A stretch of 64,000 nucleotides of DNA from Escherichia coli (GTDB lineage Bacteria > Pseudomonadota > Gammaproteobacteria > Enterobacterales > Enterobacteriaceae): NCBI RefSeq assembly GCF_013315695.1, contig NZ_CP054355.1. One strand, 5' to 3'. The position numbers were made by a program, and so were the translations under genes. Of this stretch, positions 3,890 through 36,948 are shown piece by piece. Position 1 is the first letter of the stretch, and every line of letters begins with the position of its first letter. The notes beneath the pieces were generated by a model. It ran no database searches. It saw nothing but the letters and a program-made list of their open reading frames with translations, and had not been told where the DNA came from.

Positions 3890-4141
<252 letters not shown>

Positions 4142-4657: not shown

Positions 4658-4873
4658 TTACTCACGGTAGAAATATTTAAGAGCACTAACAATACTGTGT
4701 GTATAGTTTAGTTTTTTTAGGCATAGGCAAAAATAACTAATGGAAACATTGTTCCTTTCACAACTTTCTTGCTTTGAATAACCATCAACCAAATACTCCT
4801 TAAGAGCCATGATGTTTTTTTTACTTCTGATTGGTGATATTTCAATTAAAAGTGAAAAGTGTTCTCCATTCAT
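4658..4873 (-). CDS. PapB/FaeB/PefB-family fimbrial operon regulator (orphan)
   Basis: ORF 4658..4930; segment EHFSLLIEISPIRSKKNIMALKEYLVDGYSKQESCERNNVSISYF parallels PapB (HFFLLIGISSIHSDRVILAMKDYLVGGHSRKEVCEKYQMNNGYF); likely start at internal Met. Confidence 0.55.
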   Translation of the reverse strand: MNGEHFSLLIEISPIRSKKNIMALKEYLVDGYSKQESCERNNVSISYFCLCLKKLNYTHSIVSALKYFYRE

Positions 4874-5454
4874 ACATGATTGAATTAGCTCTGTATTAAA
4901 GTTATTTCTTGGATAGGGGGAGGGAGTCATATATTATCTAACCTTATTTTTCTATTAAAGAATTGAAATAGAATAGACAGAAATGCTATTGGAGTAAGTA
5001 TTTGATAGTAGGTAATTTACGCTCCTATATAGACTATTGTTACTCATATAATATTTTGGGGTGGCTTATGTTGTGACAGCGCCAGTTGTTAAAAACGTTG
5101 TACCGTCATACGGGATAATATAGAACAACCAATAACGATTACTGGTCTATGACCACCGCCAGAGATACAGAAAAGCTTTATCTGTAATGAGCTCAACTAT
5201 ATATCCCGTCAACTGCTGGTTCAGAGCGTTGTCGTAAAAATCCTGTGCAAATAAATTAGTCATATATCAAGCCATTTACGCGGTAACTGGCAGGTCTGAA
5301 ATTTAACCTCCTGACGATGCAGGCTTGCATACATCCATAGTTTTACTTTGGTATGTGACTCTAAGTATGTAGATCATCAGTCCGGCATGGAACGCTGTTT
5401 TGACCCGCTAAAATCCTTACGGAAAAGTAAGGATGTGGATTTGCCCCTATATTT

Positions 5455-5568
5455 CCAGTCATCGGTTCGTCTGAGAATGACGTGCAACTGCGCACGCGAC
5501 ACCCGGAGACAACGGCTGACTAAGCTTACTCCCCATCCCCGGGCAATAAGGGCGCGTGCGCTATCCAC
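5455..5568 (-). pseudogene. insD: IS2 insD 5' fragment (truncated transposase OrfB)
   Basis: [38 protein letters not shown] then unrelated sequence. Confidence 0.7.
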
Positions 5569-5891
5569 TTTTTTGCACGCCCATATTCAACGGCTTCTTT
5601 AAGGAGTTCATTTTCCATCGTTTTTTTGCCGAGCAGGCGCTGGAGTTCTTTAATCTGCTTCATGGCAGCAGCAAGTTCAGAGGCAGGAACGACCTGTTCT
5701 CCTGCGGCCACAGCAGTAAGACTTCCCTCCTGGTATTGCTTGCGCCAGAGAAATAACTGGCTGGCTGCCACACCGTGTTGCCGGGCAACAAGGGAGACCG
5801 TCATTCCCGGTTCAAAGCTCTGCTGAACAATAGCGATCTTTTCCTGTGTAGTACGCCGTCTGCGTTTCTCCGGTCCTAAGACATCAATCAT
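5526..5891 (-). CDS. insC: IS2 transposase OrfA (InsC)
   Basis: Protein [56 protein letters not shown]... matches IS2 InsC. Confidence 0.85.
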
Positions 5892-6132
5892 CTGTTCTCC
5901 AATGACTAGTCTAAAAACTAGTATTAAGACTATCACTTATTTAAGTGATATTGGTTGTCTGGAGATTCAGGGGGCCAGTCTAAATTCCGTATTGCTGGTT
6001 CTTTATCGGTAGAAAAATCAATATCCATAGCATCGGTCGCAGGCGCTGATACATTGCAGAGCGACCGGGTATTAGAGTCGCTATTCACTGGTTATCACTG
6101 AACGCTGCGTGATCAGGGTTGCATTAATAAAA

Positions 6133-6152
6133 TGATATGTTATAACATATCA
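6133..6152. promoter_or_regulatory. Perfect 20-bp palindrome tgatatgttataacatatca, candidate Fur-like operator upstream of heme receptor gene
   Basis: Read directly; perfect dyad symmetry, AT-rich hexamers resembling Fur-box repeats; 21 bp upstream of ORF start. Confidence 0.35.
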
Positions 6153-6172
6153 ATATTAACATATATTTTCGC

Positions 6173-8143
6173 ATGTATATGAACGTAATCAGAAACGTCA
6201 TTTGTACATTAATCATACTCCCGATAGGGTTACAGGCAGAGACCAGTCATTCTTCTATGGCTAAAGATACAATCACCGTTGTCGCGACAGGAAATCAGAA
6301 CACGGTATTTGAAACGCCGTCAATGGTCAGTGTCGTCACGAATGACACGCCATGGAGTCAGAATGCGGTCACATCAGCCGGCATGCTGAAAGGTGTTGCC
6401 GGTCTCAGCCAGACTGGTGCAGGACGGACCAATGGGCAGACCTTTAATCTACGCGGCTATGACAAAAGCGGGGTACTTGTTCTTGTTGACGGCATCCGTC
6501 AACTCAGTGACATGGCAAAAAGCAGTGGCACTTATCTGGATCCGGCACTCGTCAAACGTATCGAAGTTGTCCGCGGACCAAACTCCAGTCTGTACGGCAG
6601 TGGCGGGCTGGGAGGTGTTGTGGACTTCAGAACTGCCGATGCAGCAGATTTCCTTCCCCCCGGAGAGACAAACGGTTTAAGTCTGTGGGGAAATATCGCC
6701 AGTGGTGACCACAGCACAGGCTCGGGGCTCACCTGGTTCGGTAAAACCGGAAAAACAGATGCGCTCCTTTCTGTCATTATGCGTAAAAGAGGTAATATCT
6801 ATCAAAGTGATGGTGAGCGCGCACCTAACAAGGAAAAACCTGCAGCCCTGTTTGCGAAAGGCTCTGTCGGTATAACAGACAGTAACAAAGCAGGTGCCAG
6901 CTTGCGTCTCTACCGGAATAACACCACTGAACCGGGCAATCCCACTCAGACACATGGTGACAGCGGCCTGCGTGACAGAAAAACAGTACAAAATGACGTA
7001 CAGTTCTGGTACCAGTACGCTCCTGTGGATAACAGCCTCATCAATGTAAAGTCAACTTTATATCTCAGTGATATCACTATCAAGACAAACGGTCACAACA
7101 AAACGGCAGAATGGAGAAACAACAGAACCTCCGGTGTTAATGTTGTCAACAGGAGTCATACTCTGATTTTTCCGGGAGCCCATCAGTTAAGTTATGGCGC
7201 TGAATATTACCGTCAGCAGCAGAAGCCAGAAGGCTCTGCCACACTATATCCGGAAGGAAACATTGACTTTACATCGTTGTATTTCCAGGATGAAATGACA
7301 ATGAAAAGCTACCCGGTTAACATTATCGTCGGTTCCCGCTATGACCGGTACAAGAGCTTCAATCCCCGTGCCGGAGAACTGAAAGCCGAACGCCTGTCCC
7401 CAAGGGCGGCGATTTCAGTCTCACCGACAGACTGGCTGATGATGTACGGCTCCATATCCTCTGCATTCCGTGCCCCCACAATGGCAGAAATGTACAGGGA
7501 TGATGTACATTTTTACCGCAAGGGTAAACCCAATTACTGGGTACCTAACCTTAATCTGAAACCAGAAAATAACATTACCCGTGAGATTGGCGCAGGTATT
7601 CAACTGGACGGCCTGCTTACAGGCAATGATCGGCTGCAGTTGAAAGGCGGATATTTCGGAACGGATGCCAGAAACTATATTGCCACGCGCGTGGATATGA
7701 AACGGATGCGTTCTTATTCTTATAATGTATCCCGGGCCCGTATCTGGGGATGGGATATGCAGGGAAATTACCAGTCTGATTATTTTGACTGGATGCTTTC
7801 TTATAACCGCACGGAAAGTATGGATGCCAGCAGCAGGGAATGGCTGGGCTCCGGCAATCCTGACACACTCATCAGTGACATCAGTATACCTGTTGGTCAT
7901 GGAGGAGTTTCTGCCGGATGGCGTGCTGAACTTTCGGCAGCAGCCACGCATGTGAAAAAAGGCGATCCCCATCAGGCTGGCTATGCCGTACATTCCTTTT
8001 CACTGTCTTATAAGCCTGTAAGTGTTAAAGGCTTTGAGGCATCAGTGACTCTGGATAATGCCTTCAACAAGCTTGCCATGAATGGCAAAGGAGTGCCGCT
8101 TTCAGGCAGAACTGTCAGTCTTTATACCCGTTATCAGTGGTAA
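6173..8143 (+). CDS. TonB-dependent outer-membrane heme/hemoglobin receptor (ChuA/ShuA family)
   Basis: 656 aa; N-terminal TonB-box-like DTITVVA; blocks YGAEYYRQQQKPEG, SAFRAPTMAEMY, YWVPNLNLKPE and C-terminal YQW closely parallel ChuA. Confidence 0.8.
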   Translation: MYMNVIRNVICTLIILPIGLQAETSHSSMAKDTITVVATGNQNTVFETPSMVSVVTNDTPWSQNAVTSAGMLKGVAGLSQTGAGRTNGQTFNLRGYDKSGVLVLVDGIRQLSDMAKSSGTYLDPALVKRIEVVRGPNSSLYGSGGLGGVVDFRTADAADFLPPGETNGLSLWGNIASGDHSTGSGLTWFGKTGKTDALLSVIMRKRGNIYQSDGERAPNKEKPAALFAKGSVGITDSNKAGASLRLYRNNTTEPGNPTQTHGDSGLRDRKTVQNDVQFWYQYAPVDNSLINVKSTLYLSDITIKTNGHNKTAEWRNNRTSGVNVVNRSHTLIFPGAHQLSYGAEYYRQQQKPEGSATLYPEGNIDFTSLYFQDEMTMKSYPVNIIVGSRYDRYKSFNPRAGELKAERLSPRAAISVSPTDWLMMYGSISSAFRAPTMAEMYRDDVHFYRKGKPNYWVPNLNLKPENNITREIGAGIQLDGLLTGNDRLQLKGGYFGTDARNYIATRVDMKRMRSYSYNVSRARIWGWDMQGNYQSDYFDWMLSYNRTESMDASSREWLGSGNPDTLISDISIPVGHGGVSAGWRAELSAAATHVKKGDPHQAGYAVHSFSLSYKPVSVKGFEASVTLDNAFNKLAMNGKGVPLSGRTVSLYTRYQW

Positions 8144-8149
8144 CAAATC

Positions 8150-8941
8150 ATGATGAAAAATACAGGTTATATCTTAGCTCTTTGTCTGACAGCATCGGGG
8201 CATGTCCTGGCCCACGATGTCTGGATTACAGGTAAACAGGCAGAGAACAACATTACCGCAGAGATTGGTTATGGTCATAATTTCCCCTCAAAGGGCACAA
8301 TTCCTGACAGAAGGAATTTCTTTGAAAATCCCCGGATTTATAACGGGAAAGAGACAATAACACTGAAGCCAGCGTCCACGGATTATGTCTATAAAACTGA
8401 GTCTGCAAGCAAAGATAATGGCTACGTTTTGTCAACATATATGAAACCGGGATACTGGTCGAGAACCTCTTCAGGATGGAAACCGGTCAGCCGGGAGGGC
8501 AGAAATGATGTGGCTTACTGTGAGTTTGTCACTAAATATGCGAAATCTTTTATTCCTGGTGAACAGCAGATGCCAGCACAACTCTATCAGTCTCCAACGG
8601 GGCATGAGCTTGAAATCATTCCGTTATCCGATATAAGTCGTTTCAGTGAAGATGTGAAGCTGAAAGTCCTGTATAAAACGTCCCCGCTCGCCGGAGCTAT
8701 CATGGAGCTTGACTCGGTCAGTTATCTGAAATCATCCCGTCATACTCATGCAGTTGAGCACAAACATCCTGTTCATAAAGCAGAACTCACCTTTGTAACT
8801 AATGAGGATGGTATCGTCACAGTACCTTCTCTTCATATTGGACAGTGGCTGGCGAAAGTCCAAAATAAGAAAAGTTTTCAGGACAAAAGCCTGTGTGATG
8901 AAACTGTCGATGTGGCAACTTTAAGTTTCTCCCGAAATTAA
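8150..8941 (+). CDS. Secreted/periplasmic protein, possibly DUF4198-like partner of TonB-dependent receptor
   Basis: 263 aa with signal peptide and mature start AHDVWI; 6 bp downstream of receptor gene; family assignment from memory only. Confidence 0.4.
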   Translation: MMKNTGYILALCLTASGHVLAHDVWITGKQAENNITAEIGYGHNFPSKGTIPDRRNFFENPRIYNGKETITLKPASTDYVYKTESASKDNGYVLSTYMKPGYWSRTSSGWKPVSREGRNDVAYCEFVTKYAKSFIPGEQQMPAQLYQSPTGHELEIIPLSDISRFSEDVKLKVLYKTSPLAGAIMELDSVSYLKSSRHTHAVEHKHPVHKAELTFVTNEDGIVTVPSLHIGQWLAKVQNKKSFQDKSLCDETVDVATLSFSRN

Positions 8942-9003
8942 CAATACTATTCCCTGCCCTGAAATTGTAAGCGTGCAGCAAGAACCGTATTGACGGGGAT
9001 GTG

Positions 9004-9522
9004 TTATTCAGTCGGCAGTGCTACGCGCCAGGGGAGCAGTTCGCCGACCCGGTTTATCGGCCAGTCGGCTATGACGTCAAGGACATAGCGGAGGTAGCTT
9101 TCTGGCTCCACTCCGTTCAGTTTGCACGTCCCGATCAGGCTGTACAGCAGCGCTCCCCGCTCTCCTCCATGATCCGAACCGAAGAACAGGTAGTTTTTGC
9201 GGCCCAGACTGACCATCCGCAACGCATTTTCAGCGATGTTATTGTCCGCCTCAGCCCAGCCATCATCTGCATAGTACGTCAGCGCCGGCCACTGGTTCAG
9301 GGCGTATGCGAACGCTTTCGCCAGTTCTGAGTGTCGCGACAGGGTTTTCATCTTTTCACGCAGCCAGCTTTCCAGGGATTTCAGCAGCGGTTTCGTTTTC
9401 AACTGACGTTCGGCAAGGCGCTGCTCCGCCGTCATTCCCCTTATCTCTGCCTCGATGGCGTACAGTTCGCCGATCCGTTTCAGCGCTTCCTCCGTCAGGG
9501 CTGACGGGGTGCGAACGTGCAC
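9004..9522 (-). pseudogene. IS66-family transposase (orfC) C-terminal part
   Basis: Contains ...[10 protein letters not shown]...[42 protein letters not shown]... continuing the frame broken by IS100. Confidence 0.75.
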
Positions 9523-34715: not shown

Positions 34716-36662
34716 TTATGGGTTATTTTTTATCGTCTCCCCGGGAACCGCGCTTTTGCGCCGCATCACCCACAGCGCCACCAGCGCCGCGAGCAGCAAT
34801 ACGACCTGCGGTAACAACGTTTCCACGTAGGGATAAATCCCCAGCCAGCTGATTTCAGGGAAGCCGTTAATCAACGTAGGCTGGAACAGTTTGCCTTCCA
34901 CCAGTTCCAGAACGCCTTTGCCCGCAAAGACGAAGGCCATCAGATACATGAAACTGCCGGTAAACATAAAGAAGGGTTTCAGCGGCAGGCGCACCACTGA
35001 GTAACGCATCACCAGCCAGGCGAGCAGCAGCACCACGCAGCCAATCACAAAACCGGCGCCAATCGCCATATGGCCGGATACCGTGTTTGCATCGCCAATC
35101 AGAGCGTAATAGAACAGCACCGTTTCCGCCCCTTCGCGGTACACCGCCAGGAAGCTGGTCAGCCATAGTCCGACCAGGGAGCCTCGCGACAGGGAATGAG
35201 ACAGTTTGCCTTCCAGCCAGGCTTTCCAGTGGCGCGCTTCCACTTTGGACAGCAGCCAGTAACTCATAAAGAACAGCATCACGACGGCAATCAGCATCGT
35301 TATGCCTTCCAGCAGTTCACGGCTGGCGCCGGAGTTAGTAAACAGCATCTGGAAGATAGCGGCGGTGATGACGCTGGCGATCAGCGCCACAATTACCGAC
35401 TGACGAATAAGCGGCAGCTTATCCTGATGGTTGTTTTTCACCATGTAGGCCACGATTGCCGCAACAATCAGCAGCGCTTCCAGCCCCTCGCGCACGATGA
35501 TCATCAGACTATAGAGCAGCAGACTCCACTGGGTTTCTTCGCCTTCGCCCAGCATCGTCACGGCTTTTTGCAGATCCTGCGCCAGCGCGCTGGCCTCTGC
35601 ATTCAGGCGCTCAACCGGCTGACCGGCCTTCATCAGACTGACCAGGCGGGTAAAATACGCCTCCAGCGTGGTTTTAAATGCCGAATCGCGAGAGCCGATT
35701 TTGTTTTCCATGCCGCTGGCTTCGAAGCGGTCGAAGTAGGTATCCTGGATATCCAGAATCGCATTCTTCGCATCGCCGCCCTGATAGCGCGCTATCGCGT
35801 CCTGAATGCTCTGGTTAATTCCCGTCGTCACCTCAGCCCAGTCGGTGCGGTTATTTCCCTCGTCCGCCGCCGGAATGTTGTCTGCGCTTTGCGCTGCGGC
35901 AACCTGCTGATCGTCACGGGTGGTTGGCAAGCCGGGTAAGATATCCTCGATATCCTGTAGCAGCGTAGTGACCTGATAGGAGACATCGTTGAGATGGTCA
36001 GGTTGCGCGGTCAGCGCAATCAGGGATGAGAATTGTTGGTTAATGGAGGCGGCATCTTTTGCAGAACGGTTTTGTCTGAGGGACATCTCCATCTCAGAGT
36101 TTTTAAAGCCCTGATAGTGCGCCTGTTGAACGTGCTGACTGGCAACGCTGTAATTCCCGGCCTGATATTCAGTGACCGCCTGCGCCAGCAGATCGTCGAT
36201 CGTCCTGAAACTCTCCTGCCAGTGAACGGCAATGTCGTCCCTGGACAGCGCGTTGTGCTGCTCTTCGGCCACCAGACGATGTCCGCCATCCAGCACCGGT
36301 TCCACTTCGCGCAGTGCGGCTTTCAGCCAGTCAATGCGCGCCTGGACGTCAGCGAGCGGTTTTTTCTCGCCAATCATTCGACGGATCTCGCCGAATGCGC
36401 TCTCCATCTCGTAACTTTTGCGCGCGGAAATGTTGATGCGGATCGGCCCTTCCAGGTTCTCGAACACCTCAAAATAGGCCATTTGTACCGTGCGGCGCGC
36501 CTCGTCGGCATGCTGTTGCTGATAAAGTTCCGCTGTTTTATCAAGACGTTGCTCGATATCTTCAATCAAAGGCGCATAATTCGTCGACGCCCAGACACTC
36601 ATGCTTATAAACAAGCCAAAGAGAGTAACCAACAAAGAGTTACGGAAGTTACGCACGTGCAC
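34716..36662 (-). CDS. fetM: FTR1-family iron permease with large N-terminal periplasmic domain (FetM-like)
   Basis: 648 aa; REGLE motif (IVREGLEALLIVAAIVAY) typical of FTR1 permeases. Confidence 0.8.
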   Translation of the reverse strand: MHVRNFRNSLLVTLFGLFISMSVWASTNYAPLIEDIEQRLDKTAELYQQQHADEARRTVQMAYFEVFENLEGPIRINISARKSYEMESAFGEIRRMIGEKKPLADVQARIDWLKAALREVEPVLDGGHRLVAEEQHNALSRDDIAVHWQESFRTIDDLLAQAVTEYQAGNYSVASQHVQQAHYQGFKNSEMEMSLRQNRSAKDAASINQQFSSLIALTAQPDHLNDVSYQVTTLLQDIEDILPGLPTTRDDQQVAAAQSADNIPAADEGNNRTDWAEVTTGINQSIQDAIARYQGGDAKNAILDIQDTYFDRFEASGMENKIGSRDSAFKTTLEAYFTRLVSLMKAGQPVERLNAEASALAQDLQKAVTMLGEGEETQWSLLLYSLMIIVREGLEALLIVAAIVAYMVKNNHQDKLPLIRQSVIVALIASVITAAIFQMLFTNSGASRELLEGITMLIAVVMLFFMSYWLLSKVEARHWKAWLEGKLSHSLSRGSLVGLWLTSFLAVYREGAETVLFYYALIGDANTVSGHMAIGAGFVIGCVVLLLAWLVMRYSVVRLPLKPFFMFTGSFMYLMAFVFAGKGVLELVEGKLFQPTLINGFPEISWLGIYPYVETLLPQVVLLLAALVALWVMRRKSAVPGETIKNNP

Positions 36663-36674
36663 ACCGCCAAAGAA

Positions 36675-36693
36675 TGCAAATGATAATTATTAT
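36675..36693. promoter_or_regulatory. Fur box-like site in fetM promoter region
   Basis: gcaaatgataattattatc matches Fur consensus at 16 of 19 positions; 13 bp upstream of fetM start. Confidence 0.5.
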
Positions 36694-36948
36694 CATATCT
36701 TTTTGTCGCGTTGTACATGACCTGGATCATAAAAATGTCAGCAGACGACAAGTTATGTAAATTTATTTCATCAAATCGTGATGAACACACACATTATGCG
36801 TTGATAAAAGGGACGTTATCTCCCTGTTTTTCTCATGGAATTAACGGCAAGGCAGGCGCGGTAACAGAGGAATAAATCCCCCTGCCGACAGTGATATTAT
36901 TCATTATCGGCAGGCAGAAATAAAACGCGTTATTGCGTACAGCAATAT

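Follow-up and report, generated by a model that had tools for sequence, protein, structure and literature searches.

We analysed a stretch of 64,000 nucleotides (nt) of Escherichia coli DNA (contig NZ_CP054355.1, hereafter the window), which is part of a pUTI89/senB-type IncF plasmid. The locus studied here, at positions 6133–8941, comprises a palindrome predicted to be an operator for the repressor Zur, a gene for a TonB-dependent receptor of the ChuA/HemR family and, starting at 8150 after a gap of 6 nt from the receptor stop codon, an open reading frame (ORF) for an exported protein of the DUF4198 family. An initial annotation, made from the sequence alone, had described a ChuA-family heme receptor preceded by a perfect 20-bp palindrome and followed 6 bp later by a secreted protein of 263 amino acids (aa), placed between an IS2 remnant and an IS66 element and lacking the usual heme utilisation partners. 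This layout was borne out: the palindrome, the ORF with its signal peptide and both insertion sequence (IS) flanks were recovered, and no heme-utilisation genes adjoin the operon. The features of the locus are as follows.

5526–5936, minus strand: IS2 TnpA (NF006928, 275.8 bits); left flank, outside the operon
6119–6124, plus strand: putative −35 element TTGCAT, inferred; three of six positions match the consensus; lies within the conserved GGTTGCA; same hexamer in K-12 zinT
6133–6152, strandless: predicted Zur operator TGATATGTTATAACATATCA; perfect 20-bp palindrome; matches TGWNAYRWTATAWYRTNWCA at 20/20 positions
6141–6146, plus strand: putative −10 element TATAAC, inferred; inside the Zur box, 16 nt after TTGCAT; five of six positions match TATAAT
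6173–8143, plus strand: TonB-dependent receptor, ChuA/HemR family, Zur clade; 656 aa; Plug and TonB-dependent barrel domains
8150–8941, plus strand: periplasmic DUF4198 protein, putative metal binder; 263 aa, signal peptide; PF10670
8947–8965, plus strand: terminator hairpin remnant, interrupted by the end of the IS66-family element
9004–9522, minus strand: C-terminal fragment of an IS66-family transposase (NF033517, profile positions 243–385 of 387); right flank, outside the operon

Chromosomal alleles carry CCTGCCCTG...CGGGCAGGG at the end of the operon. In the window, homology ends after CCTGCCCTG and the sequence continues with GTAAGCG; the end of the IS66-family element truncates the terminator hairpin, and a GTPase gene found downstream in chromosomal copies is lost. 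Over region 5900–9000 the window is 100% identical to numerous F plasmids of E. coli and to some from Klebsiella. One record, NZ_CP095138.1, matches exactly over the region of interest, but it ceases to agree with the window position by position from 1455 on, and its annotation was therefore left unused for other parts of the window.

Predicted operator and promoter

The sequence TGATATGTTATAACATATCA is the longest perfect palindrome in the window. Its length alone is weak evidence, as 20 bp was also reached in 3 of 50 mononucleotide shuffles. The palindrome was compared with TGWNAYRWTATAWYRTNWCA, the two-dimer recognition pattern derived from a Zur–DNA crystal structure (Gilston 2014, PMC4219657), and proved to be the sole site in the window that matches without mismatch; the composition-aware expectation is about 2e-4 such sites per window. 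With the classical 23-bp Zur consensus it scored 19/23 and was the top site of the whole window. The same scanner, run on the K-12 znuA/znuC and zinT operators as positive controls, found a 20/20 match to TGWNAYRWTATAWYRTNWCA in each. The K-12 zinT promoter also has the same arrangement of TTGCAT, about 9 nt and a Zur box.

The initial annotation had proposed that the palindrome is a site for Fur or another repressor. Near the promoter the 19-bp Fur consensus was matched at 11/19 at best; since 472 sites in the window score exactly 11/19, the palindrome region is at background. The best upstream matches in the window and in its orthologs, 11–12/19, are likewise at background level. Both real iron systems of the window, cjrABC and FTR1/FtrD, served as internal controls and have 16/19 Fur boxes directly upstream. 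Fur was thus rejected as the identity of the palindrome, and the NikR operator GTATGA-N16-TCATAC was absent. Of the original proposal, the repressor site stands and Fur does not: on its sequence the palindrome at 6133–6152 is almost certainly a repressor operator, and Fur is predicted not to bind it, an outcome that the initial annotation itself took to speak against its view.

Conservation of the upstream region was examined in diverged alleles, taken from the chromosomes of CFT073 and Nissle, from further chromosomes and plasmids of E. coli, from a second lineage of that species and from a Klebsiella variant. In eight diverged alleles a Zur box matching at 18–20 of 20 positions precedes the start codon by 40–47 nt, in intergenic DNA that diverges around it. 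Across 12 alleles the upstream region contains only two conserved islands, GGTTGCA, which holds the putative −35 element, and TATAACAT, which holds the box core with the putative −10 element and is invariant in all alleles. The plasmid box differs from the CFT073/Nissle box at four positions, all of them degenerate in the motif, and the Klebsiella pneumoniae box TTTTACGTTATAACATTACA matches at 19/20. More distant orthologs, in Salmonella enterica, Providencia and a metagenomic contig, have a Zur box of the TGTTATGTTATAAC type directly upstream and no Fur box; the Salmonella box, AAAATGTTATGTTATAACATTTC, agrees with the classical Zur consensus at 20 of 22 scored positions. Taken with the matches described above, this conservation indicates that the operon is very probably under Zur control.

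The half-site TAACATAT recurs as a third copy at 6157–6164, 14 nt downstream of the copy inside the Zur box. With it the arms 6130–6142 and 6157–6169 form an 85% inverted repeat. This copy is not conserved in other alleles and could be an additional Zur contact or merely AT-rich sequence.

The receptor and the DUF4198 protein

The receptor carries the TonB box DTITVVA. Five members of its clade, itself included, were aligned with six heme-type receptors. The position of the plug histidine of ChuA, His86, is occupied by Lys116 in the window receptor and by Lys, Ile, Lys and Lys in the other four clade members; all six heme-type receptors have His. The surrounding motif, GTDTGHLN in ChuA, is replaced by SDMAKSSG and variants in the clade. 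ChuA needs both this His and its loop-7 His420, and the H86A substitution strongly impairs growth on hemoglobin (PMC12241658). The loss of the plug ligand from every clade member counts against the heme function assigned in the initial annotation. A clade-specific Met stands two residues before the lost His; judging from its position it could in principle be a replacement heme ligand, in which case heme transport would be possible.

The closest relatives beyond E. coli and Klebsiella are proteins of Salmonella enterica (51% identity) and Providencia (48%); the receptor of the metagenomic contig is 54% identical. By sequence comparison the receptor is a member of a separate clade within the ChuA family, together with the Salmonella and Providencia proteins. 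The receptor gene has a ratio of nonsynonymous to synonymous substitution rates (dN/dS) of 0.12–0.18. In the Klebsiella allele ACG replaces the first ATG, and the gene starts at the codon aligned with window position 6179 (position 4016 of locus L002); the true receptor start is therefore probably 6179 (MNVIRN...) and not 6173. Two further candidates for the identity of the receptor were tried. Hma (CFT073 c2482), with which the initial annotation had suggested an alignment, shares 28% identity over 174 aa, in the plug only, and was rejected; the ZnuD family (NF038289) was rejected also, as discussed below.

The downstream protein, left as of uncertain family in the initial annotation, scored 94.1 bits on PF10670 (DUF4198; cut-off 34). 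It matched the Neisseria gonorrhoeae protein Zcp (PDB 9MHI series) with an E value of 3e-23, or 1.6e-36 when a profile was used. An AlphaFold2 model built from 68 relatives had a pLDDT of 91.5 and a pTM of 0.88. The fold of this model matched zinc-bound Zcp (9MHL; TM-scores 0.75/0.85) and nickel-bound IsDUF4198 of Ideonella sakaiensis (9GCB; 0.66/0.79), and nothing else above 0.3. The 9GCB structure was missed by sequence and profile searches of the PDB and was recovered by fold comparison only. These two proteins are the characterised DUF4198 members (PMC12663993, PMC12537917). Zcp (NGO1049) is a Zur-regulated protein for periplasmic zinc capture that also binds Co, Ni and Cu (PMC12663993). 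IsDUF4198 binds Ni2+ with a dissociation constant (Kd) of 18 nM through its N-terminal His and His18, and binds Zn and Co too; its family is reported with TonB receptors and NikR as neighbours (PMC12537917). The window protein is thus a member of the DUF4198 family that, on family and modelled fold, is predicted to bind metal.

A rule-based prediction places signal peptide cleavage after Ala21 (VLA|HDVW), which would make His22 the mature N-terminus. The motif GYGH supplies His43, at mature position 22, whose correspondence to His18 of IsDUF4198 is putative. Among the 68 relatives His22 is conserved in 67 and His43 in 61, and the cysteines of the Zcp-type disulfide (C124, C249) are kept in 61–62. 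A loop at residues 197–212, modelled with low confidence, contains five histidines (RHTHAVEHKHPVH). Only 16 relatives out of the 68 have such a His-rich insert, among them all the examined partners of receptors of the ChuA-like clade.

The receptor and DUF4198 genes are adjacent in every relative examined, and both are under purifying selection (dN/dS 0.09–0.31). In one E. coli lineage (loci L006–L009) the receptor is 96% identical to that of the window and the DUF4198 protein 77%, with dN/dS values of 0.16 and 0.31 respectively; by these sequence comparisons the DUF4198 gene either is a mosaic or evolves more rapidly than its receptor neighbour. A one-genome-per-species scan with the DUF4198 alignment yielded no relatives, and the distribution was therefore drawn from E. 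coli genomes and from databases of proteins. Of 5426 complete E. coli genomes, 1192 (22%) carry the module, and in 1123 at least 80% of its length is there; some records hold truncated copies. It occupies 823 plasmid and 425 chromosomal places in these genomes, so that the contrast drawn in the initial annotation with a usually chromosomal receptor does not apply to it. A tblastn search found the DUF4198 gene on 738 plasmid records, of which 705 are from Escherichia and 576 are conjugative. Carriers include the pUTI89/senB-type and ST131 F plasmids, and the iro island in CFT073 and Nissle 1917.

In these two strains the module adjoins the iroBCDEN island and is followed by a gene for a COG0523 GTPase, located as follows.

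L012, 9118–10317, and L015, 47573–48772 (CFT073 c1267): ZigA-like COG0523 GTPase gene after the chromosomal module

Among protein families this GTPase matches the zinc chaperone ZigA best, with 187 bits, below the equivalog cut-off. No Zur box precedes the chromosomal gene, where the best site agrees at 13 of 22 scored positions of the 23-mer consensus; only its position ties the gene to the operon. CFT073 c1267, listed as cobW, is among the candidate fitness genes of a transposon screen for systemic infection (PMC3855560).

Several side observations concern the surroundings of the module. On Klebsiella pneumoniae contigs of 165–198 kb (L002–L005), possibly virulence plasmids, the pair is 83% and 80% identical to that of the window and lies near speF/potE-like genes and IS elements. 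In the window an ORF for a PapB/FocB-like fimbrial regulator (90 aa, 4658–4930, minus strand) lies upstream of the IS2 remnant, and a second plasmid allele (L019) has the same gene along with the module.

Proposed zinc acquisition and alternative roles

We propose that the locus is a two-gene, Zur-repressed operon for metal acquisition in zinc starvation, feeding the chromosomal ZnuABC/ZinT system, and put the probability of this reading at about 0.6. The model is built on sequence, on the comparison of alleles and orthologs, and on characterised relatives. In zinc-replete cells two Zn-loaded Zur dimers would occupy the 20-bp operator at 6133–6152; because the operator covers the −10 hexamer, RNA polymerase would be blocked. 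When zinc is scarce, for example through host calprotectin, Zur would leave the operator and a single mRNA would be made for both proteins. The receptor, having lost the plug heme-ligand His, would move a zinc species across the outer membrane with energy from TonB-ExbBD. The exported DUF4198 protein would then capture metal in the periplasm through its N-terminal-His site and His-rich loop, and would either buffer the metal or hand it to ZnuA/ZinT-ZnuBC.

A number of observations weigh against this proposal. The zinc triad of Zcp (H29/H31/H142) aligns with Q, E and E in the window protein, and the N-terminal-His site that the window protein may have in common with IsDUF4198 is one that prefers Ni there. 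The receptor scored 44.6 bits on the ZnuD profile (cut-off 950), in the plug region only, and has no obvious His/Asp-rich surface loop. Its membership of the ChuA family, recognised in the initial annotation, is clear: it scored 419.5 bits on TIGR01785 (TonB-hemin; cut-off 316.85), aligned over its full length (residues 32–656) with ChuA (9DIR/9DHE) and ShuA (3FHH) at E values of about 1e-164 to 1e-168, and is 44–46% identical to heme receptors of the ordinary kind from Citrobacter, Serratia and Yersinia. The equivalent of ChuA His420, in loop 7 and the FRAP/NPNL region, is His446 and is invariant in all 11 aligned sequences. Lastly, the putative promoter has a weak −35 element, and a clear Shine-Dalgarno sequence is absent before both receptor ATGs (6173 and 6179).

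The ChuA-like features just listed are what a working heme or hemoglobin receptor would also display. Such a receptor would be a third E. coli heme transporter beside ChuA and Hma, under Zur control and delivering heme to the chromosomal Chu proteins. The invariant loop-7 His is essential for heme extraction in ChuA, and the clade-specific Met might serve as an axial ligand in place of the lost plug His. Hma, moreover, reportedly works without canonical histidines. We nevertheless consider a heme function unlikely. Loss of His86, which is common to all clade members, cripples ChuA (PMC12241658). No allele or ortholog has a Fur box, yet the iron systems of the same window do; the conserved partner is a predicted binder of metal ions, not a protein that binds or degrades heme; and a heme ATP-binding cassette (ABC) transporter or oxygenase is linked to the operon at none of the loci examined.

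Within the zinc-starvation model, the substrate of the receptor might be a zinc-porphyrin (Zn-protoporphyrin or a zincophore of the Zn-coproporphyrin type) and not heme or free Zn2+. This would account for the retention of the porphyrin-loop His together with the change of the plug ligand. If true, E. coli would pirate zinc through a heme-type gate under the control of Zur, with the DUF4198 protein taking up the periplasmic metal. We regard this substrate as improbable.

A module for the uptake of nickel or cobalt, for hydrogenases or other enzymes, would fit the properties of IsDUF4198, in which His1 and His18 bind Ni2+ with a Kd of 18 nM and whose family has TonB receptors and NikR as neighbours. 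The window protein has kept the N-terminal His as well as a second one, at mature position 22, and its model matches 9GCB. The operator is a Zur box, however, and no NikR site was found; Zn is also bound by IsDUF4198, and by Zcp along with Co, Ni and Cu; and the His-rich loop and the adjoining ZigA-like GTPase favour zinc. A nickel or cobalt role therefore seems very unlikely. Finally, the locus could be inert cargo, with a piece of some chromosomal island left unexpressed or useless between IS elements and the palindrome as a relic. The IS2 and IS66 remnants directly on both sides, the lost terminator and GTPase gene and the truncated copies in some records would suit this view, but it can practically be dismissed given two intact ORFs with dN/dS of 0.09–0.31, the presence of at least 80% of the module in 1123 genomes and a plasmid operator that matches the motif perfectly and is kept from allele to allele.

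Zur-controlled TonB-dependent zinc transporters and zinc capture by DUF4198 proteins are known elsewhere. What would be new in the proposed zinc-starvation operon is a version in E. coli that is derived from ChuA, coupled to DUF4198 and outside the reviewed Zur regulon, which consists of znuABC, zinT, two ribosomal paralogs and pliG and includes no TonB-dependent receptor (PMC6103462). E. coli is not known to possess a Zur-controlled outer-membrane transporter. In annotations the receptor still figures as one for iron or heme, plasmid papers assign the gene to iron acquisition as a receptor for heme/hemoglobin (PMC4155114), and a study of ChuA names only ChuA and Hma as known heme importers of E. 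coli (PMC12241658). A literature search by protein accession, CFT073 locus tags and zinc/Zur contexts found no paper on the receptor, with subscription journals mostly outside its coverage. Carriers of the module include major pathogenic E. coli lineages. If the operon is a zinc-starvation system, it would bear on the resistance of extraintestinal pathogenic strains of E. coli (ExPEC) to nutritional immunity of the calprotectin type and on the success of these plasmids. The receptor would moreover count as an antigen that is exposed on the cell surface and expressed within the host, and the DUF4198 family would gain its first receptor-coupled role.

Other features of the window were noted in passing. 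A Fur box, GGTAATGATAATCATTTAC (16/19, 18524–18542), lies directly upstream of an operon at 18577–23952 that encodes ChaN-like and TonB-like proteins and a 753-aa receptor and is followed by a senB-like ORF (cjrABC-senB). A heme-binding-type lipoprotein and a second TonB homolog are encoded about 10 kb from the receptor operon. A second Fur box (36676–36694, 16/19, with 14/14 positions of its TGATAATTATTATCA core) lies upstream of an operon on the minus strand at 34716–36662, in which an FTR1-family permease gene has an FtrD-like/YHS gene downstream, a Fur-type iron uptake operon. A third Fur-like site (15730–15748, 16/19) lies upstream of an ORF at 14724–15335 on the minus strand without a Pfam match. 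The second longest palindrome of the window is ATTCTGCCATGGCAGAAT, a perfect palindrome of 18 bp at 26783–26800.

Comparison with known systems

The receptor resembles ChuA, ShuA and HemR (PDB 9DHE, 3FHH) in family, architecture, TonB box, the FRAP/NPNL region and the equivalent of loop-7 His420. It differs from them in the change of plug His86 to Lys (Ile in one ortholog), in the Zur box that takes the place of a Fur box, and in its position in a separate clade; its conserved neighbour is a DUF4198 gene instead of chuS/TUV-type genes. Hma is likewise an accessory ExPEC TonB-dependent receptor without the canonical heme-ligand histidines, but is related to the window receptor at the plug domain only.

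The logic proposed here, an outer-membrane TonB-dependent transporter derepressed from Zur in zinc starvation, is that of ZnuD/TdfJ and other Zur-regulated TonB-dependent zinc transporters (Neisseria, Acinetobacter, Pseudomonas). ZnuD too is said to have been first taken for a heme receptor. The window receptor differs from ZnuD in sequence beyond the plug and has no obvious His/Asp-rich loop. The operator and promoter resemble those of K-12 zinT and znuA/znuC in their 20/20 motif matches, and that of zinT also in the TTGCAT −35 element followed by the box; what those promoters serve is an ABC transporter and an accessory protein of the periplasm, and no transporter of the outer membrane.

The DUF4198 protein shares with Zcp (PDB 9MHI–9MHO) its fold and the conserved disulfide and, by prediction, a periplasmic location and control by a Zur box. 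Zcp is monocistronic and holds Zn through its H29/H31/H142 triad, whereas the window protein has Q/E/E at these positions, is encoded in an operon with a receptor, and has the N-terminal-His/GYGH site and the His-rich loop. With IsDUF4198 (PDB 9GCB) it shares the fold, an N-terminal His after predicted cleavage and a second conserved His about 20 residues on. The two are 17% identical; IsDUF4198 is tied to Ni and NikR and not to Zur, and a His-rich loop is not described for it.

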